Shown here one piece after another: positions 4,374-63,728 of a stretch of DNA of 64,000 nucleotides. Position 1 is the first letter of the stretch. Each line of letters begins with the position of its first letter. The notes under the pieces are model-generated. The model searched no databases and had not been told where the DNA came from. It saw nothing but the letters and a program-made list of their open reading frames with translations. The DNA comes from Shigella phage Henu12: the sequence record OQ834936; one strand, written 5' to 3'. A program made the translations under genes and the position numbers.

Positions 4374-6200
4374 TTAAAGTTGCTTGTCAATAGTATTTCG
4401 AACATCACGCAGGTTAACGTAACCATAAGGTTGCGAGTTACTAAATACCAGTTTCAAAGCACTATGACAGTTGTCAATTGCACCTTCAAACTCTGCAAAG
4501 CCAAAACCATCTACAGCTACCAGCTTGTCACCATCCCACATAGGGACAACTCCACCAAAAGCAGACTTCTTAAGACCGCTGTCAGTTTTAGGGTCTTTAG
4601 CCAGCATAATTTCTTGACCATCCATCTGTGCAAGAGTTGCTTTAACAGCAAATGCAAAGGTGTCACGAGTCAGGTACTGATAGGTGTATGAGCCTACACC
4701 AAACACTACGTTAGAACTTGCAAAACCTTTATCAGCAAGACGTGACAGAATCTCATTAGCCCTTTCCAGAGTGATAGAATCACCGTAGATTAGCCCAATG
4801 TGCTCATCCAGTACTTTGTACCCTTTGGAGTTAACAGTGCCACCAAAGATGTTATACAGCGTGTGTATAGCTCCATCAATTTCTGCTGTTAACATACGCT
4901 TCACAGTAAACTGTCCAGTTTTCTGAGCGGTAATCAGGTTGATTGTGTCAATATAATCAAAATCTTCATTTTCAACAACCATCTCATAACCTTCAGAGAT
5001 TAACCAAGCAGAGAACCCAAAACCAATATCAGACATTTCACAATTCAAGATTGTGTCATGCAGATGGGTATTATCTGGTGCAAGACCTTTCATGTGCTTG
5101 TAGAACATTGACTTAGCAGTTTCCCATTCAACGGCTTTGTAACCTGTAACAATGTGAACAGGGTCTCCAGAGTCTGGACGAATTACCAACTTACCATCAC
5201 GATTCAGAATTACATTACGTAGCTCTGGCAGAATCTGTGTAACAGTACGCCAGAAGTTGTAAGTATCTGATACGGCACTTGCAATACCAGTTGGGTAAAC
5301 TTCTGTCAGAAGGCGATGGAAAGTTTCTACCTCACCACGCCAACGTTTGGCATCTAGTAATCCTTCAGACTGCATAATGTACTGTGAGTGAATATCCTCT
5401 TCTGTCAGGTCTTTCATATTCCATGAAATGTTTGCACACATCACAGAGTGTTCAGTTGCTGGTACAGAGTTGCCAATATCACTGATTGTCATAAACTGAC
5501 CATAAGCACGTTTAGCAGTATACACAGCAGGGAAGCTGTCAGTACCTTTAAAGCTGGTCAAGTGACCTACAGCATTAAAAGCATCATCTGTGAAGCCAGA
5601 CATACCACGCATTGCAAAATCATGACACTGCCAAGGTAAATGGAAGTCATTGTCACAGGTCTTGTCAGCCCATTGTTTACAGATACGTTTGTAATGCAGT
5701 GCAATAGTTGCAATCGTACAAGCCTTCCAGATTTCAGCAGAGAAAGCATCTTCAAGGTAACCAGCTACCCAATGGAATCCCTCTACAGTGTTTTTAAAGA
5801 CAATCATCGGGACACGCATAGGGACAATTGTACCTTCCTCTACAGAGTAGACTTCAACAGGTAGGTAACCCAAGTCATGAAGTTCTTCCCAATGTTGACG
5901 ACCAATAGCATCTGCACCAAGGACACCATTCATGATTTCCAAGATTTCGTCAATGGCTTCTTTCTTATCACGTTCAAAGAACGTTGCATTCCAGTGGTCT
6001 ACCAGATAGTCTTTTACAAAACGCTGAATACCAAAGGCTACAACACCATCAATCTCTAACGGAGAGTTAAACCATTTATCTCCACGAGGTGTTAAGTTCA
6101 GCATAAGATACTGTGTAGCATCTGGATACTGGTAGAAATGGCCAGATTTGTAGGCATCTGCATTAAGTGCTGCTGGTACTGCATAAAGTGATTTAGTCAT
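4374..6200 (-). CDS. nicotinamide phosphoribosyltransferase family protein (Nampt/NadV-like; could be a Namat-type NAD+-forming transferase)
   Basis: 608 aa; N-terminus ALNADAYKSGHFYQYP resembles the Nampt start (LLATDSYKVTHYKQYP); GVGSYTYQY-type motifs; about 100 aa longer than canonical Nampt. Confidence 0.8.
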   Translation of the reverse strand: MTKSLYAVPAALNADAYKSGHFYQYPDATQYLMLNLTPRGDKWFNSPLEIDGVVAFGIQRFVKDYLVDHWNATFFERDKKEAIDEILEIMNGVLGADAIGRQHWEELHDLGYLPVEVYSVEEGTIVPMRVPMIVFKNTVEGFHWVAGYLEDAFSAEIWKACTIATIALHYKRICKQWADKTCDNDFHLPWQCHDFAMRGMSGFTDDAFNAVGHLTSFKGTDSFPAVYTAKRAYGQFMTISDIGNSVPATEHSVMCANISWNMKDLTEEDIHSQYIMQSEGLLDAKRWRGEVETFHRLLTEVYPTGIASAVSDTYNFWRTVTQILPELRNVILNRDGKLVIRPDSGDPVHIVTGYKAVEWETAKSMFYKHMKGLAPDNTHLHDTILNCEMSDIGFGFSAWLISEGYEMVVENEDFDYIDTINLITAQKTGQFTVKRMLTAEIDGAIHTLYNIFGGTVNSKGYKVLDEHIGLIYGDSITLERANEILSRLADKGFASSNVVFGVGSYTYQYLTRDTFAFAVKATLAQMDGQEIMLAKDPKTDSGLKKSAFGGVVPMWDGDKLVAVDGFGFAEFEGAIDNCHSALKLVFSNSQPYGYVNLRDVRNTIDKQL

Positions 6201-6244: not shown

Positions 6245-7144
6245 TTATTCAATATTTGCTACGGTCACTTGTGAGAAGTGGGAAAGACCACGGTCTTTTT
6301 CATCCCCTAGTGAGTTTGTAGTGTAGATATGGTCGATACCATTGTCAAGGAGATTTTCAACACCTTTAGAGAAAATCCCATGAGTGACATACAGTTCCAC
6401 ACGTTCTGCTCCAGCTTCACGAAGATACTTTGCAGCCTCGATAAAGGTTCGACCACCGTCACAGATATCATCCAGAATCATGACAGTCTTACCTGTCAAG
6501 TCTACATCATCAAGGATTCGCATACCAGTGATTTCACCAGTTTTCAGGTTTCGTACCTTAGCCATTGTAATATAAGGTTTATCAACCTCTTTAGCAGCCT
6601 CTTCAGTCTTCTTAGCTGCACCTGCATCTGGAGCCACTAAGTAATCAATGCGTGGGTCACTTGCAAAGTGGACTGCTGCCTCTTTTTGAGGGAGGTTGTA
6701 GAAGCTCTTAAACAAATTCTCTGCAACATTACTGTGAGTATCCAGAGCACATACTGCATCGAACTCCATAGCATTTACAAGATTTGCAAAGACTTTAAGT
6801 GCTGCTGCATCACCTTTAAACATGTGACGGTCATAGCGAGCATTTGGTAAGAATCCAAAGACAACAGTTTTCAGAGTTGCTTTCTGAGGAATCAAACGGT
6901 CAATTGCTTCTTTAGCCATAGCTAATGCAAAGAGTGTGTCTTTGTCATAACCTTGTACTGTGAAGACTACGTTTTCAATCTTACCAGCAGCATGTTCAGC
7001 AAAGTCTACTAAGTCTTCTGAGAAGTTACCACCAATCTCCCCAGAAGGGAACTGGATAATGTTGAAGGTCTCTTGATGAGAACCTTTGGAATTTGAATTA
7101 AGTAGAACTCGAATAGTAGTTTTCATAATATTTCTCTCAGTCAA
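6245..7144 (-). CDS. ribose-phosphate pyrophosphokinase family protein (Prs-like; could be an ADP-ribose pyrophosphokinase)
   Basis: 299 aa; Prs-like motifs FPSGEIGGNF (cf. RFSDGE), FGFLPNARYDR (cf. GYARQDRR) and the PRPP-binding loop MILDDICDGGRT. Confidence 0.8.
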   Translation of the reverse strand: MTERNIMKTTIRVLLNSNSKGSHQETFNIIQFPSGEIGGNFSEDLVDFAEHAAGKIENVVFTVQGYDKDTLFALAMAKEAIDRLIPQKATLKTVVFGFLPNARYDRHMFKGDAAALKVFANLVNAMEFDAVCALDTHSNVAENLFKSFYNLPQKEAAVHFASDPRIDYLVAPDAGAAKKTEEAAKEVDKPYITMAKVRNLKTGEITGMRILDDVDLTGKTVMILDDICDGGRTFIEAAKYLREAGAERVELYVTHGIFSKGVENLLDNGIDHIYTTNSLGDEKDRGLSHFSQVTVANIE

Positions 7145-7975: not shown

Positions 7976-8287
7976 TTACTGAGCTATTTTCAAGACTTTT
8001 AAGAAACCTTCCTCACCAATTGCATCATAAACGTTTTCAGTTGGCTTGATAAGGTTATTCAAGCATACAATTTTCTTACGCTTCTTGTCATAAGTAAGCT
8101 TCAGTTGTTTCAACTCTTTGTCATCTTCAGGGTGCTCATTGTACATCTTCACAGCTTCTTTAAAGCTAATGTAGCCACCACCTAGAGTAAGGAAACCTGT
8201 ACCACAATAGTGGGAGTTGTGTTTATCAGCCATAAACTGGCACAGGATAGAAATCTGAATTTTACGAGTGTTATAAACCTTTTCCAT
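7976..8287 (-). CDS. hypothetical protein
   Basis: 103 aa ORF. Confidence 0.45.
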   Translation of the reverse strand: MEKVYNTRKIQISILCQFMADKHNSHYCGTGFLTLGGGYISFKEAVKMYNEHPEDDKELKQLKLTYDKKRKKIVCLNNLIKPTENVYDAIGEEGFLKVLKIAQ

Positions 8288-8298
8288 TTTAATAATCC

Positions 8299-8556
8299 TT
8301 ACTTGCTACGTTTACGGTTGCGAGCTTTTTTAGCTGCACGTTTAATTGCTGCTGCACCAGTTTGGCGATGAGCTTGCTTCTTACCACCTTTACCACGTCC
8401 AACATGGATGTAAGGTTGCTGTTCAATCTGGCTTGCAAGAACCTGTGCAACTGCTGAAGCGTCTACTCCAACCTGCTTACCAGTCATTGAAACGATAGCT
8501 GCTGCTTTTGCCAGAGCTGCTAAGAAACCTGCTTTCATGTTTGAAAAAATTCCCAT
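8299..8556 (-). CDS. hypothetical small protein with Ala-rich N-terminus and highly basic C-terminus
   Basis: 85 aa; C-terminal KRAAKKARNRKRSK. Confidence 0.4.
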   Translation of the reverse strand: MGIFSNMKAGFLAALAKAAAIVSMTGKQVGVDASAVAQVLASQIEQQPYIHVGRGKGGKKQAHRQTGAAAIKRAAKKARNRKRSK

Positions 8557-8571
8557 TTTAATATCTCTCTG

Positions 8572-8892
8572 TTAAAGTTTAATACAGAACTGCTTCAGTT
8601 CTTCTTCTGTTACTGCGACAACTTTATCATCAACTCTCAAGTTTGTCGCGTAAAAGTTTGAGAAATGTGCTTTGTATTTTACTTTAAATACTCCGGCGTC
8701 CTCAATCTGCTTCAAGGCTGTCATTCCAGTGGAATCAAATAGGCTTTTTGTGTAGTTTCTCCACTCTTCAAGAGTTTCTGGATTGACTTTATAGCTACCA
8801 AACAGTGACATGTTACAAGCTACCATAACAATCTCACCACGTTTGAATCCACCATTACTCTGTACGCCATTGACAGTCGCCTTGCCAGCCAT
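8572..8892 (-). CDS. hypothetical protein
   Basis: Start chosen at the internal ATG (8892) that has a GGAG RBS; the longer ORF-track version would overlap nrdG by about 120 nt. Confidence 0.4.
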   Translation of the reverse strand: MAGKATVNGVQSNGGFKRGEIVMVACNMSLFGSYKVNPETLEEWRNYTKSLFDSTGMTALKQIEDAGVFKVKYKAHFSNFYATNLRVDDKVVAVTEEELKQFCIKL

Positions 8893-9346
8893 ATTCTTTT
8901 CTCCACAAGTTTTGGTTATCTGAACCACGATATGGTTTGTTCGTTGGTTTAGAAGCATCATACTTACCATCAATCACTACGTCAACATATTTCATCACTT
9001 CTTTGTTAATTTTTTCATGAAGCTGAAATCCTGTCCACAGCCAGATAGTCTTGTCTGGATAGATAGACTTAACCTTCTGACAAATCTTGGTGACTTCCTC
9101 AATATTACGGTCATCAAGTGGTTCTCCACCAAGAATTGACAGACCACTTATAGAGTCATCTTCCAAGAGTCTTATAATGCCATAAAGGTTTGCATAAGTA
9201 AACTCTTTACCAGCATTAAACTTCCAAGATTCCTTGTTAAAACAACCTTCACAGTGATGTTTGCAGCCAGCTACAAAAAGACTGACACGAGCACCTTCAC
9301 CGTTCGCTGTATCGAATTTTCGTATTTCCATGTAGTTCATTAGCAC
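8855..9346 (-). CDS. nrdG: anaerobic ribonucleotide reductase activating protein (radical SAM)
   Basis: 163 aa; CKHHCEGC radical-SAM cysteine motif near the N-terminus; adjacent to nrdD. Confidence 0.8.
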   Translation of the reverse strand: MLMNYMEIRKFDTANGEGARVSLFVAGCKHHCEGCFNKESWKFNAGKEFTYANLYGIIRLLEDDSISGLSILGGEPLDDRNIEEVTKICQKVKSIYPDKTIWLWTGFQLHEKINKEVMKYVDVVIDGKYDASKPTNKPYRGSDNQNLWRKEYGWQGDCQWRTE

Positions 9347-9732
9347 ACCTCAACTTCAAAACTTACATGTTTTGTGACGTACTCTTCACAATGCTCTTTA
9401 ATAAATTCCTGAAGCAGTTCATCTTCCTGAGCACGAGTCATCAAAGCAACATACTTTGGATTTATTGTTTGCTGAATACTGTAGAAAGACATGTCACCAA
9501 TTTCTGTACCATATGAATCTGACCATGTTCCAGTTACTACTAAGACTTTATCACTCAACTCCGTAGGGAGTTCAATGTCATCATCCTTTGCGTCATCAAT
9601 AACAGAGTCAGTTATTAAAAGAGTACATGCTATGTAAAACTCTGAGTATTTTCTGTGAGTTTTCTCACAAGAGCCACACTCTAAAGCATAGTCTTTAAGC
9701 CAGTTCATTTGATTTTTATTTAATTTAGTCAT
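9340..9732 (-). CDS. hypothetical protein
   Basis: 130 aa acidic ORF. Confidence 0.45.
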   Translation of the reverse strand: MTKLNKNQMNWLKDYALECGSCEKTHRKYSEFYIACTLLITDSVIDDAKDDDIELPTELSDKVLVVTGTWSDSYGTEIGDMSFYSIQQTINPKYVALMTRAQEDELLQEFIKEHCEEYVTKHVSFEVEVC

Positions 9733-60447: not shown

Positions 60448-60523
60448 TGGAGTATCGGAAGGGATTTGAACCCTCATAAACCTGTTTTGCAGACAGGCAC
60501 ATATCCATTTCTGTCACCGATAC
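60448..60523 (-). tRNA. tRNA-Cys (anticodon GCA)
   Basis: Manual fold: 7-bp acceptor stem, anticodon loop CUGCAAA, T-loop TTCAAAT, encoded CCA. Confidence 0.75.
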
Positions 60524-60530
60524 ATTAAAT

Positions 60531-60623
60531 TGGAGGAAGATACCAGACTTGAACTGGTACGCCGATTTCTCGGTTACTGGCAGTTTAGCAAACTGCTCCC
60601 TTACCTTTTAGGGTTAATCTTCC
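60531..60623 (-). tRNA. tRNA-Ser (anticodon GCU), long variable arm
   Basis: 93 nt; acceptor GGAAGAT/ATCTTCC; anticodon loop TTGCTAA; T-arm ACCAG-TTCAAGT-CTGGT. Confidence 0.7.
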
Positions 60624-60624
60624 A

Positions 60625-61359
60625 TTATTTGTTCAGAGCTTCTTTCATCTCTGGAGTTGCGATAGTATCAATCACACCAGTTTTACATGAATCGTCAAAC
60701 CAGCTTGGTAGAACATTCGCAAGGAAACCATTAATATTTGTTTTCAGGTATTCTGCAATCAGTGCTGCTTCATCTGCAATCATCTGAGTTACTTCATTAG
60801 CATATGCAGTAATCTTTGTAATACCCTCATTAATCGCTGTAACGGCCTGTGTAGCGAGTTCAGAGATTGTATCTAGTCCTTGGTCGATTGCATCTTGCAA
60901 ATCGCTTAGGACGCTATTTACAGCGTCTATGGAGGTATTAATCAAATCCATCGCTTTATTACCGTACTCGGTAGCTACGCCCATGATACCGCTAAACGGT
61001 GTACATCCAACCTGTTCACCTGCTGCTCCCATAACGTTAGAGTAACCTTTAGCTACTTGCATACGTTGTGAAAACTCATCTACAGACTTTTGTCCATACT
61101 CAGTGAGTGTACTTGTCGTTGAAGTTGTACTTCCAAGGCTTGTTGTGAAGCTTCCTAATAAGGCTGTTGTCAGTCCAGCAGCAACTAAAATCTGTTGTGT
61201 TGCAGGGTCTGTTACAGAACTAATTGAGTTCACTAATGATTGAGAAGCAGCTACAGTACCACCAAGAACTGCTGCACCAGTAATAAGAGGGTTAGAGAAC
61301 CCATTACCAGTTTTAAGGAGATTAAAAATCTCTTTACTTTGTTCTGTCATCTCTTTCAT
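60625..61359 (-). CDS. hypothetical Ser/Thr/Ala-rich protein inside the tRNA region
   Basis: About 244 aa from the internal Met; low-complexity S/T/A/G-rich sequence; the ORF-track start at 61422 would overlap a tRNA-like element. Confidence 0.4.
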   Translation of the reverse strand: MKEMTEQSKEIFNLLKTGNGFSNPLITGAAVLGGTVAASQSLVNSISSVTDPATQQILVAAGLTTALLGSFTTSLGSTTSTTSTLTEYGQKSVDEFSQRMQVAKGYSNVMGAAGEQVGCTPFSGIMGVATEYGNKAMDLINTSIDAVNSVLSDLQDAIDQGLDTISELATQAVTAINEGITKITAYANEVTQMIADEAALIAEYLKTNINGFLANVLPSWFDDSCKTGVIDTIATPEMKEALNK

Positions 61360-61377
61360 TATGCACCTATAAAGTTG

Positions 61378-61452
61378 GTAGCCCATCGGGATTTGAACCC
61401 TGTTCTCATGTTTTTCAGACACGCGCTTTAACCATATAAGCTAATTGAGCTA
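61378..61452 (-). tRNA. tRNA-like element, possibly tRNA-Phe (anticodon GAA), noncanonical
   Basis: T-loop TTCAAAT and acceptor pairing present, but the T-stem has only 3 clean pairs and the acceptor/D junction is irregular. Confidence 0.4.
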
Positions 61453-61458
61453 TTAAAT

Positions 61459-61535
61459 TGGGGTGACCTACGGGAATCGAACCCGTATAGACCATGTTCA
61501 CAGCATGGGTCATTATCCATTTATGATAAGGCCAC
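61459..61535 (-). tRNA. tRNA-His (anticodon GUG)
   Basis: Manual fold: D-stem TCAT/ATGA, anticodon stem CCATG/CATGG with loop CTGTGAA, T-arm ACGGG-TTCGATT-CCCGT, CCA encoded. Confidence 0.75.
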
Positions 61536-61566
61536 ATTTAAGGACTCTCGTAAGAACCCTTAGAAG

Positions 61567-61642
61567 TGGCAGCAGTATAAGGATTTGAACCTTAATCTTT
61601 CAGCTTCAGAGGCTGGAGCATTGCCAGTTATGCTATACTGCT
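61567..61642 (-). tRNA. tRNA-Gln (anticodon CUG)
   Basis: Acceptor AGCAGTA/TACTGCT, anticodon loop CTCTGAA, T-loop TTCAAAT. Confidence 0.6.
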
Positions 61643-61648
61643 AATATT

Positions 61649-61727
61649 TGGTACTCCATATCGGATTCGAACCGATACATAACACAGATTTTAAATCTGG
61701 CCTCTCTGCCAATTGGAGTAATGGAGC
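61649..61727 (-). tRNA. tRNA with Leu-type anticodon UAA (class I length)
   Basis: Acceptor and T-arm ATCGG-TTCGAAT-CCGAT are clear; anticodon loop TTTAAAA; D-loop CAATTGGCAGA; variable region only about 7 nt. Confidence 0.5.
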
Positions 61728-61729
61728 AT

Positions 61730-61805
61730 TGGCGGGGGATGATGGAATTGAACCATCTTCTTCGATTTCAAAGACCGAGGTTTTAACCTTGTAAACTAAT
61801 CCCCT
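61730..61805 (-). tRNA. tRNA-Gln (anticodon UUG)
   Basis: Anticodon stem TCGGT/ATCGA with loop CTTTGAA; T-arm GATGG-TTCAATT-CCATC. Confidence 0.6.
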
Positions 61806-61813
61806 ATTAAATT

Positions 61814-61890
61814 TGGTGCAGAATAGAGGATTCGAACCCCTAACTAACAACTTCGTAGGTTGCTGCTCTATCCATTTGAACTAATTCTGC
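61814..61890 (-). tRNA. tRNA-Arg (anticodon ACG)
   Basis: Perfect acceptor GCAGAAT/ATTCTGC; D-stem GTTC/GAGC; anticodon loop CTACGAA; T-loop TTCGAAT. Confidence 0.75.
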
Positions 61891-62052
61891 AATATCCTTT
61901 TGAGATTCCTGTCTAGCTCTCTTCTTATCTCTTCTGAGAAAGCGTTTACGATGGTCTGTACGCCATTTGTAATAATCTTCTTCACCATCATGTGCTGCAC
62001 AGCAGCCACAACTTGCAATTTCAACTTTACCATGTCTACCATAAGGCTTCAT
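61840..62052 (-). CDS. hypothetical Cys-rich basic small protein embedded in the tRNA array
   Basis: 70 aa ORF with GGAG RBS 7 nt upstream of the ATG; its 3' 50 nt overlap tRNA-Arg(ACG). Confidence 0.3.
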   Translation of the reverse strand: MKPYGRHGKVEIASCGCCAAHDGEEDYYKWRTDHRKRFLRRDKKRARQESQKDIAELVQMDRAATYEVVS

Positions 62053-62067
62053 AGGAATCTCCTAATT

Positions 62068-62145
62068 TGGTGTTCCAAGACGGATTCGAACCGTCACTAA
62101 TACAAGGTTTGAGCTTGCATCCTCTGCCAATTGGGATACTGGAAC
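62068..62145 (-). tRNA. tRNA with Leu-type anticodon CAA (class I length)
   Basis: Acceptor GTTCCAG/TTGGAAC; D-loop CAATTGGCAGA; anticodon stem GCAAG/CTTGT with loop CTCAAAC; T-arm GACGG-TTCGAAT-CCGTC. Confidence 0.5.
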
Positions 62146-62146
62146 T

Positions 62147-62221
62147 TGGTACTCGCTGAAGGACTTGAACCTTCTTCACCAACTTGTAAGGATGGGGCTT
62201 TACCGTATAAACTAAGCGAGC
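62147..62221 (-). tRNA. tRNA-Val (anticodon UAC), tentative
   Basis: T-arm GAAGG-TTCAAGT-CCTTC; anticodon loop CTTACAA; one mismatch in the anticodon stem. Confidence 0.5.
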
Positions 62222-62317
62222 TTTAAAAGAGGTCTGAAGTTGTGCCGCTAACTCAACTCCGTGGAATTTGTTACGGTCTTCAGTTGACTCAAGCGGTCTT
62301 TCACTTGACCTCAAAAT

Positions 62318-62394
62318 TGGTGCTGCTCACAGGACTCGAACCTGCATCTCCATCCTTACAAGGGATGTGCAATAGCCAATTATACGAAAGCAGC
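62318..62394 (-). tRNA. tRNA-Thr (anticodon UGU), tentative
   Basis: Anticodon stem CATCC/GGATG with loop CTTGTAA; T-loop TTCGAGT. Confidence 0.55.
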
Positions 62395-62400
62395 ATTATT

Positions 62401-62475
62401 TGGAGCATCCAGAGGGAATCGAACCCTCAACTTCAGTTTGGAAGACTGTAGTTTTCCCATTTAAACTATGGATGC
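62401..62475 (-). tRNA. tRNA-Gly (anticodon UCC)
   Basis: Acceptor GCATCCA/TGGATGC; D-stem GTTT/AAAC; anticodon loop CTTCCAA; T-arm GAGGG-TTCGATT-CCCTC. Confidence 0.7.
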
Positions 62476-62481
62476 ACTAAT

Positions 62482-62557
62482 TGGTGGAGAAGCAGGGAAT
62501 TGAACCCTGTACTTAAGTTTGCAAAACTTATGTTTTAACCATGTAAACTACATCCCC
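62482..62557 (-). tRNA. tRNA-Ala (anticodon UGC)
   Basis: G3-U70 wobble pair in the acceptor stem; anticodon stem TAAGT/ACTTA with loop TTTGCAA; T-arm CAGGG-TTCAATT-CCCTG. Confidence 0.7.
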
Positions 62558-62563
62558 GATATT

Positions 62564-62639
62564 TGGTACAGGTGGAGGGAATTGAACCCATCGTCTTACT
62601 GATTAAGAGTCAGCCGCATAACCATTTTGCTACACCTGC
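62564..62639 (-). tRNA. tRNA-Lys (anticodon CUU), tentative
   Basis: Anticodon loop CTCTTAA; T-stem partly mismatched. Confidence 0.45.
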
Positions 62640-62646
62640 ATTAATT

Positions 62647-62722
62647 TGGTACACCTAGAGAGAGTCGAACTCACACTGAACAGATTCTAAGTCTGCTGCC
62701 TCTTCCAATTGGGCTATAGGTG
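62647..62722 (-). tRNA. tRNA with Leu-type anticodon UAG (class I length)
   Basis: D-loop CAATTGGAAGA; anticodon stem GCAGA/TCTGT with loop CTTAGAA; T-loop TTCGACT. Confidence 0.5.
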
Positions 62723-62974
62723 CATTAAATCTTTGTAGAGAACTTCCAAGACCCCAAAGCAACAATGGTGTAGTTTGCCTCAGAAGTTCTCTAAAAAGAC
62801 CTAAACAGTCTTTGCATAGTCTTGTTTAATCCGGTGACTAGAACCTTTGGAGAGCTTGATACTATCTCTTCTCCGTGACACCTACTAGGTGCTTCATCAG
62901 TGCCGTGTACGCCAATACACGGAGGGAAACCTAACGCAACATTCGAACGGAGCGCGGCTTTAAATCTTATTAGG

Positions 62975-63062
62975 CGGTAAGTAAAGGAGTCGAACCCTCA
63001 CCGTATCTCTACAGTGGCAACAGTTTTCAAGACTGTTTGGCTGCCATTAGCCGCTACCTACC
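62975..63062 (-). tRNA. tRNA-Ser (anticodon UGA), long variable arm
   Basis: 88 nt; acceptor GGTAGGT/ACTTACC; anticodon stem ACAGT/ACTGT with loop CTTGAAA; T-loop TTCGACT. Confidence 0.65.
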
Positions 63063-63075
63063 CCTAATAAGACTT

Positions 63076-63158
63076 TGGCATGGGACGGAGGAATCGAACC
63101 CCTTTGAGTAAGTTTTGGAGGCTTACGCACATGCCTTAGTGTCTTAACATCGTCCCAT
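63076..63158 (-). tRNA. tRNA-Trp-like (anticodon CCA), atypical 83-nt length
   Basis: Perfect acceptor ATGGGAC/GTCCCAT; loop CTCCAAA; T-loop TTCGATT; about 7 extra nt in the D region. Confidence 0.45.
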
Positions 63159-63299
63159 ACTATAATTCGAAGCTTACCCTGTTATCTCAACACTGTCAAG
63201 CTTCTTCTCAGATTATTTACATGTTCTGGAAAACATGAGATACAGACCACCTCCTTACAGGAGACCCGTTAAGGTCGTCTAAGTAATCTGCTAACTATT

Positions 63300-63376
63300 T
63301 GGCACACCCTACAGGATTCGAACCTGTAACTCAATGATTAGAAGTCATTTGCTCTGTCCAGTTGAACTAAGGGTGC
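63300..63376 (-). tRNA. tRNA-Arg (anticodon UCU)
   Basis: D-stem GTTC/GAGC; perfect anticodon stem AATGA/TCATT with loop CTTCTAA; T-arm ACAGG-TTCGAAT-CCTGT. Confidence 0.75.
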
Positions 63377-63608
63377 ATTAACATTTTAAAGGGTACTCAT
63401 TGCATTTAAGCCAAGCCCCATAAGGGATACCCTTTAGAATGTTGCCCACTTTATTAATCATACCGTGGGCTAGTACGCCAAATTCTTTGATGAGGGTTTG
63501 GAAGACCTCACTGGTGTTTAGCCTATTAAGCTACTGCCAGAAAAACATTATCGTTTGCATTTATTTTAAGTTTGCAAAATAGACGCTACGCTAACGAAAA
63601 CTAAGGTT

Positions 63609-63637
63609 ACTATAAAGTAGTCACATCTCAATGTCAA
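63609..63637 (-). promoter_or_regulatory. sigma70-like promoter internal to the tRNA array
   Basis: Minus strand TTGACA, 17 nt spacer, TATAGT, directed toward the downstream tRNA genes. Confidence 0.45.
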
Positions 63638-63652
63638 CAACTTTATTGAAAT

Positions 63653-63728
63653 TGGTACTGTGAGAAGGATTCGAACCTTCTGCCTTTCGGTTATCAGCCG
63701 AATGCACATCCATATGTGCTTTCACAGC
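63653..63728 (-). tRNA. tRNA-Ile (anticodon GAU)
   Basis: D-stem GCAC/GTGC; perfect anticodon stem TTCGG/CCGAA with loop CTGATAA; T-arm GAAGG-TTCGAAT-CCTTC. Confidence 0.75.

Follow-up and report, generated by a model that had tools for sequence, protein, structure and literature searches.

Three short-arm tRNA genes of Shigella phage Henu12 are probable leucine tRNAs of a type I family found in phages and Actinomycetota

The tRNA-Leu of phage T4 carries a long variable arm, and a stem-loop of this kind is the canonical criterion of bacterial type II tRNA-Leu. A type I tRNA-Leu (i.e., one with a short variable loop in place of the arm) has been biochemically characterised in Streptomyces coelicolor (Fan et al. 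2019, Nucleic Acids Res 47:6369; PMC6614811), where a tRNA-Leu(CAA) shares its cell with a leucyl-tRNA synthetase (LeuRS) that normally serves long-arm tRNA-Leu. Both its own LeuRS and human mitochondrial LeuRS attached leucine to this tRNA, and the study termed bacterial short-arm tRNA-Leu rare (PMC6614811). Here we analysed a stretch of 64,000 nucleotides (nt) from Shigella phage Henu12 (sequence record OQ834936; henceforth the window, with all positions counted from its first letter), in which three tRNA genes combine leucine anticodons with short variable regions. A preliminary description of these genes had set out from the premise that bacterial tRNA-Leu has a long arm, which is too broad in view of the S. 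coelicolor tRNA (PMC6614811) and of the type I genes on many Actinomycetota chromosomes reported below. The short-arm architecture itself is already known, and the present genes are further members of the type.

Several described systems come close to the phage genes in different ways. Judged by its published description, the S. coelicolor type I tRNA-Leu(CAA) resembles them in having a Leu anticodon, a short variable loop and A73, but it is chromosomal and actinobacterial rather than phage-borne, its LeuRS does not use A73 (PMC6614811), and its 5-nt variable loop reads ACAGC, compared with NCAGU in the consensus of the family described below and with 7 and 6 nt in the phage UAA and CAA tRNAs. 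A tRNA cluster acquired by Mycobacterium offers a second likeness, as a mobile set with a short-loop tRNA-Leu(TAG) whose host isoacceptor is long; it is the subject of a one-sentence remark and concerns a bacterial genome (PMC6582537). Animal mitochondrial tRNA-Leu(UUR) is likewise of type I, with a Leu anticodon and with A73 and A14 as identity elements (PMC9976931); however, it is organellar and structurally fragile, has its own dedicated LeuRS and lacks the D-arm signature of the phage and actinobacterial genes, and S. coelicolor LeuRS does not charge it (PMC6614811). Finally, engineered arm-less variants of Escherichia coli tRNA-Leu are charged if A73 and the contacts of the D loop with the T loop are intact (Larkin et al. 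2002, summarised in PMC9976931). The phage tRNAs keep the same features as these variants, which are artificial.

The three genes lie on the minus strand at 61649..61727 (tRNA-Leu(UAA), 79 nt), 62068..62145 (tRNA-Leu(CAA), 78 nt) and 62647..62723 (tRNA-Leu(UAG), 77 nt), with an encoded CCA included in each length. All three were called by ARAGORN and scored 46.9, 44.0 and 54.1 bits, respectively, against the Rfam tRNA model (RF00005; E-values of 4e-8 to 4e-10), i.e., 15 to 25 bits over its gathering score of 29 bits, in full-length alignments covering model positions 1-71. The anticodons UAA, CAA and UAG, previously proposed from manual folding, were found again by both ARAGORN and the Infernal/Rfam alignments. 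ARAGORN also returned the same ends for the UAA and CAA genes, while the UAG gene ends at 62723, 1 nt away from the end first given, and the strand had been left unstated. No long variable arm and no different anticodon came out of the software folding, and as ARAGORN and Infernal match the manual fold, mis-registration of its stems is ruled out.

The Rfam alignments likewise reproduced the remaining architecture that had been described. Specifically, the D stem consists in all three tRNAs of three Watson-Crick pairs (10-25, 11-24 and 12-23) followed by an unpaired C13.A22, and it closes an 11-nt D loop of the form CAAUUGG(C/A)AGA (CAAUUGGCAGA in the UAA and CAA tRNAs, CAAUUGGAAGA in the UAG tRNA). 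The variable regions, of 7 nt (UAA), 6 nt (CAA) and 5 nt (UAG), are unpaired and form no hairpin, so that the stem-loop of canonical bacterial type II tRNA-Leu is absent from each. Individually, the UAA tRNA has the D stem CUC/GAG, the variable region GUUAUGU and G1.U72; the CAA tRNA has UCC/GGA, AUUAGU and G1-C72; and the UAG tRNA, which is the nearest of the three to the family consensus, has GCC/GGC, UCAGU and G1.U72. A73 is common to all.

The set of nucleotides read by E. coli LeuRS comprises A73, A14, the A15-U48 pair, G18G19, A20a and the contacts of the D loop with the T loop (PMC9976931; introduction of PMC6614811), while the long arm is dispensable for this enzyme and arm-less variants are still active (PMC9976931). 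Every one of these identity nucleotides was found in all three phage tRNAs, including U54, U55, C56 and A58 of the T loop. We also segmented the phage tRNAs manually side by side with leuZ, leuX, leuW and leuV of E. coli K-12, the first three of which have the same anticodons as the phage set (UAA, CAA and UAG, respectively). Both groups have a D arm with a 3-base-pair (bp) stem and an 11-nt loop, RAAUYGGUAGA in E. coli and CAAUUGG(C/A)AGA in the phage, with G18G19 in the same register and with A14, A15 and A20a in place; both also have a variable region ending in G-U as well as A73, and leuZ shares G1.U72. By contrast, the E. coli tRNAs are 85-87 nt long with hairpin arms of 13-15 nt, where the phage tRNAs have 5-7 unpaired nt. 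Smaller differences concern position 13 (C in the phage, G or A in E. coli), position 9 (A versus G) and, in the CAA and UAG anticodon loops, positions 32, 37 and 38. When the D-arm signature (a 3-bp stem with an 11-nt NAANNGGNAGA loop) was sought among the 975 tRNAs called in the loci gathered up to that stage, it occurred in 54, of which 52 were tRNA-Leu (37 short and 15 long).

From these features we consider it likely that the three genes encode genuine leucine tRNAs of the type I family, which host LeuRS would charge and which would decode UUA, UUG and CUA/CUU codons. Expression, charging by the host enzyme and use on the ribosome are all inferred here from the DNA. Three points argue for charging by host LeuRS in particular: the presence of every E. 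coli-type identity nucleotide, U48 among them, the report that E. coli LeuRS tolerates constructs without the arm (PMC9976931), and the retention of such genes in two separate phage lineages that infect Enterobacterales. The proposed course of events is that the three tRNAs would be transcribed together with the minus-strand tRNA cluster of the phage; with everything that enterobacterial LeuRS reads presumably retained, and with the variable-arm hairpin as the only missing part and one that LeuRS should not need, the host enzyme would load leucine onto them. The UAA and CAA anticodons would then decode UUA/UUG, and UAG would decode CUA and probably other CUN codons too.

Several observations weigh against this reading. 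Two of the tRNAs each show one stem mismatch in the Rfam alignment: the UAA tRNA has C27.U43 in its anticodon stem, and the UAG tRNA has U50.U64 in its T stem. Per-isotype profile hidden Markov models (HMMs), trained on the other collected tRNAs with anticodons masked, ranked type II Leu first, second and third of 20 for the CAA, UAA and UAG tRNAs, respectively, with only four of six control tRNAs correctly assigned by the same models. The most direct objection is experimental: in vitro, a transcript of the S. coelicolor type I tRNA-Leu(CAA) was not leucylated by E. coli LeuRS (PMC6614811), which means that acceptance of a short arm by the enterobacterial enzyme cannot be taken for granted. 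The S. coelicolor tRNA has C48 where the phage tRNAs have U48, and it is our guess that C48 might be the cause of that failure.

To place the three tRNAs among their relatives, we compared them with other phage, viral and bacterial sequences. A BLAST search with the 77-nt UAG tRNA against cultured phages returned 321 records, in which ungapped matches of about 68 nt fell on annotated tRNA-Leu genes of Mycobacterium (101 records) and Streptomyces (53 records) phages; further matches of this kind came from phages of Bacillus, Cronobacter, Enterobacter, Enterococcus, Lactobacillus and cyanobacteria. Short tRNA-Leu genes were found in the loci of Mycobacterium phage ET08 (three), Streptomyces phage Peebs (two), Bacillus phage P59 (two), Cronobacter phage CR9 (two), Enterococcus phage EFDG1 (one, next to one long tRNA-Leu) and Cyanophage P-RSM6 (one). 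Those of CR9, a member of Vequintavirinae, represent a second enterobacterial phage lineage. In these six loci the short tRNA-Leu measured 74-80 nt, and the tRNA-Ser and tRNA-Tyr found there were long-armed. Members of the family have in common U8-A9, GCC-C13, AAUUGGYAGAGGC, the variable loop NCAGU and A73, and G1.U72 is frequent among them.

Uncultivated viral contigs gave a similar picture, with proportions that depended on the search pattern. With the D loop sought at class I spacing, 50 of 91 tRNA-Leu were short, compared with none of 47 tRNA-Ser and 4 of 25 tRNA-Tyr; at a class-neutral spacing, type I accounted for 9 of the 56 matched tRNA-Leu (~16%). For bacteria, we scanned one genome per species with TAGCCCAA at class I spacing from GTTCGA. 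Among the matches listed, 62 of 66 tRNAs were short tRNA-Leu, mostly standing alone on the chromosomes of Actinomycetota (among them Gordonia, Nocardia, Rhodococcus, Mycobacterium, Corynebacterium and Amycolatopsis), and their anticodons were mostly UAA or CAA. A few bacterial matches stood in dense tRNA arrays of up to 25 tRNAs in 8 kilobases (kb), in Nostoc and others, and one pattern match was located on a Nostoc plasmid. The UAA tRNA had no blastn match at an E-value of up to 10 in 5,426 complete E. coli genomes. In the family alignment, the UAG tRNA was ~80% identical to its nearest neighbours among actinobacterial, Nostoc-array and phage members alike, so that nearest neighbours do not resolve a phage from a bacterial origin.

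The alignment itself, made with MAFFT, contained 129 distinct type I tRNA-Leu, with 10 contributed by Ounavirinae and a Pseudomonas phage, 57 by other viral sequences and 62 by bacteria. Covariation strongly supported a cloverleaf whose D stem has 3 bp. Standard pairs filled 98.3% of its cells, compared with 63.3% in shuffles, changes on both sides were seen in 19 of 20 pairs, and the covariation score reached 0.909, whereas sliding the register by 1-3 columns gave no more than 0.164. The D stem was paired in 99.2% of cells and all three of its pairs covaried. Identity positions were close to invariant, with A14 in 129 members, A15 in 127, G18 in 129, G19 in 128, A20a in 125, U48 in 128 and A73 in 129; altogether the tertiary and T-loop nucleotides used by LeuRS were at least 97% conserved. 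The variable region measured 5 nt in 114 of the 129. All six Leu anticodons occurred, and the anticodon was Leu in every row except one that was misaligned.

Closer to Henu12, the three tRNA-Leu sequences are identical or nearly so in Mooglevirus, Suspvirus and the related Salmonella phage Sl26. All five relatives that we examined have type I tRNA-Leu only, with no long-arm tRNA-Leu, whereas their tRNA-Ser and tRNA-Tyr are long. Erwinia phage phiEa104 carries three type I tRNA-Leu (CAA, AAG and UAA) with acceptor stems wholly unlike those of Shigella phage Henu11, which the window matches (see below), and with the identity set unchanged. The C27.U43 and U50.U64 mismatches recur unaltered in Sl26 and in Escherichia phage mistaenkt and are therefore not sporadic. 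The sole change in the UAA tRNA falls in the anticodon loop, where position 32 is U in Henu11 and C in Sl26 and mistaenkt. The CAA gene is conserved in the relatives and forms a tandem duplicate in Sl26 (2548-2703), the second copy of which has no encoded CCA.

The preliminary description had left two readings side by side, that of atypical Leu isoacceptors and that of tRNAs with an identity other than their anticodons suggest. The first is backed by A73, by the Leu-type D arm and by the Leu anticodons across the 129 family members. The second, in which the tRNAs would read Leu codons while carrying another amino acid or using another synthetase, was prompted by the absent long arm and draws further on the HMMs, which for two of the three tRNAs scored Glu or Arg slightly higher than type II Leu, although this classifier mis-assigned two of its six controls. 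We regard it as highly improbable. Most synthetases read the anticodon, and none of those fits UAA, CAA and UAG (PMC9976931). As for the exceptions, alanyl-tRNA synthetase needs G3.U70 and seryl-tRNA synthetase (SerRS) needs a long arm together with G73, all of which are absent here (positions 3-70 are U3-A70, U3-A70 and A3-U70 in the UAA, CAA and UAG tRNAs, respectively). The combination of A73 with this D arm is specific for Leu, and the body shared by the family goes with all six Leu anticodons and almost exclusively with these. Alternatively, the genes could be decaying relics that are transcribed and poorly charged and that contribute nothing to translation, as the single mismatch in each of the UAA and UAG tRNAs and the failure of E. 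coli LeuRS on another type I tRNA-Leu in vitro (PMC6614811) might suggest. This also seems very unlikely, given the near-identical sequences in Mooglevirus, Suspvirus and Sl26, the conservation of the mismatches themselves, the Erwinia phage versions with compensatory changes and an intact identity set, the encoded CCA and the wide margin over the Rfam gathering threshold.

Why the arm is missing is a separate question. The simplest reading is that the hairpin, dispensable for LeuRS and not for SerRS, disappeared in an ancestral member of the family, which then spread. A further proposal, which adds to the reading of leucine-charged tRNAs rather than excluding it, is that the short arm has been kept for defence evasion: tRNAs without the hairpin would escape host toxins or nucleases, or the phage's own breakdown of host tRNAs, where these read or cleave class II tRNAs at the long arm, and would replace disabled host tRNA-Leu in the infected cell. 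Precedents exist for such factors, in that the MenT3 toxin requires the tRNA-Ser variable loop and loses its activity when the loop is deleted (PMC11541572), and in that the Septu system is reported to cut the variable loop of tRNA-Tyr (PMC13096335). Type I tRNA-Leu is moreover frequent in phages of unrelated families and hosts, and Henu11 and its relatives lack any type II tRNA-Leu. We nonetheless think this proposal unlikely. No toxin aimed at the variable arm of tRNA-Leu was found in the literature searched, many phages carry type II tRNA-Leu, and many Actinomycetota carry the same family on their chromosomes as ordinary stand-alone genes, to which the logic of phage defence does not extend. 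The Ser and Tyr tRNAs of the phage also remain long-armed, though for Ser the arm is required by SerRS. An extension of the idea, in which short-arm tRNA-Leu would be a horizontally spread, pan-phage type whose arm loss was adaptive and conferred immunity to host or phage factors that read the long arm, appears to us just as doubtful. If true, it would also mean that enterobacterial LeuRS accepts a natural type I tRNA-Leu in vivo, contrary to the outcome of the single in-vitro test with the Streptomyces tRNA.

The three tRNAs belong to a well-conserved lineage of enterobacterial phages in which the entire set of Leu tRNAs is short-armed. At least six unrelated phage groups have members of the same family, as do many Actinomycetota chromosomes, and this spread offers a natural test for the features that LeuRS actually reads. 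In the open-access literature we found no paper that ties short-arm tRNA-Leu to phages, the nearest finds being the Streptomyces study and the Mycobacterium remark, and the term 'type I tRNALeu' appeared only in PMC6614811; both negatives are weak, as most subscription journals lay outside the search. There is also a warning for tRNA annotation, as isotype models may label such genes undetermined or pseudo. In the phiEa104 record, for example, which was annotated with tRNAscan-SE, the type I tRNA-Leu(UAA) is given as 'tRNA-Undet' and other genes of the cluster as 'tRNA-Pseudo', despite scores of ~50 bits (6779-6855 and 6617-6693). The GenBank record of Henu11 labels all three short-arm genes as tRNA-Leu.

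A comparison of codon usage with the tRNA complement, suggested in the preliminary description, showed that the phage favours UUA, CUU and CUA relative to its host. Specifically, in the 68 long open reading frames (ORFs) of the window, which has a GC content of 39.6%, the shares of Leu codons were 0.25 for UUA, 0.26 for CUU and 0.10 for CUA, compared with 0.16, 0.10 and 0.03, respectively, in a sample of 13 E. coli K-12 genes. UUG (0.165 in the phage vs. 0.17 in E. coli) and CUC (0.05 vs. 0.08) differed less, and the share of CUG was 0.17 in the phage against 0.45 in the host. The Leu anticodons of the phage are those of the single-copy isoacceptors of the host, with none supplied for CUG. This anticodon set fits the usual codon-supply role of phage tRNAs.

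The genes belong to a larger tRNA cluster. Within the window's last 3.6 kb, ARAGORN called 18 tRNA genes, every one of them on the minus strand; together with the annotation of the record, the cluster covers 60448..63728 and runs on past the end of the window. It includes two class II tRNA-Ser genes on the same strand that keep their long arm, at 60531-60623 (93 nt) and 62973-63062 (90 nt). Shigella phage Henu11 (OM953433; Ounavirinae, Mooglevirus) matches the region at 100% identity apart from one gap of ~236 bases, and other matches, with 90-96% identity, came from many Shigella, Escherichia, Citrobacter and Salmonella phages, several of them classed as Ounavirinae. Beyond the point where the window ends, the Henu11 record continues with tRNA-Met(CAU), Lys(UUU), Asp(GUC), Tyr and Pro (extended locus 8062-9448), and ARAGORN called 26 tRNAs in the extended locus. 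The earlier remark that there is no tRNA-Met is thus correct for the window according to ARAGORN, but it reflects an edge effect, with tRNA-Met(CAU) located just beyond the end in the Henu11 record. The Henu11 tRNA-Tyr, also just beyond the window, is a class II tRNA of 88 nt with its long arm kept; the record annotates it as a pseudo tRNA-OTHER.

One further gene in the cluster is called by neither ARAGORN nor the Rfam tRNA model. It lies at 63076-63158 on the minus strand, between tRNA-Ser(UGA) and tRNA-Arg(UCU), and is probably a divergent tRNA-Trp overlooked by annotation pipelines. In the predicted molecule the acceptor stem is AUGGGAC/GUCCCAU (A1-U72), with G73 and an encoded CCA; the T arm contains GGUUCGAUUCC, and the anticodon loop, (C)CUCCAAA(A), has the Trp anticodon CCA. 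Its unusual feature is a stretch of ~10 nt, instead of the usual 2, between the acceptor stem and a 3-bp D stem. Both mistaenkt and Sl26 keep the gene, and two of its stems differ there by fully compensatory changes: the anticodon stem changes from GUAAG/CUUAC to AACGG/CCGUU and the D stem from CAC/GUG to CUC/GAG. The gene also aligns, outside its enlarged D region, to the one annotated as tRNA-Trp in phiEa104.

Finally, the one gap relative to Henu11 falls at 61805-61814, between tRNA-Gln(UUG) and tRNA-Arg(ACG), where the window lacks ~236 bp that are present in the Henu11 record (locus 5407-5650). At the same tRNA-Gln(UUG)/tRNA-Arg(ACG) junction, Sl26 and mistaenkt have an ORF of 558 nt, and other relatives have HNH endonuclease genes within the tRNA cluster. 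The cluster thus looks like a hot spot of insertion and deletion.

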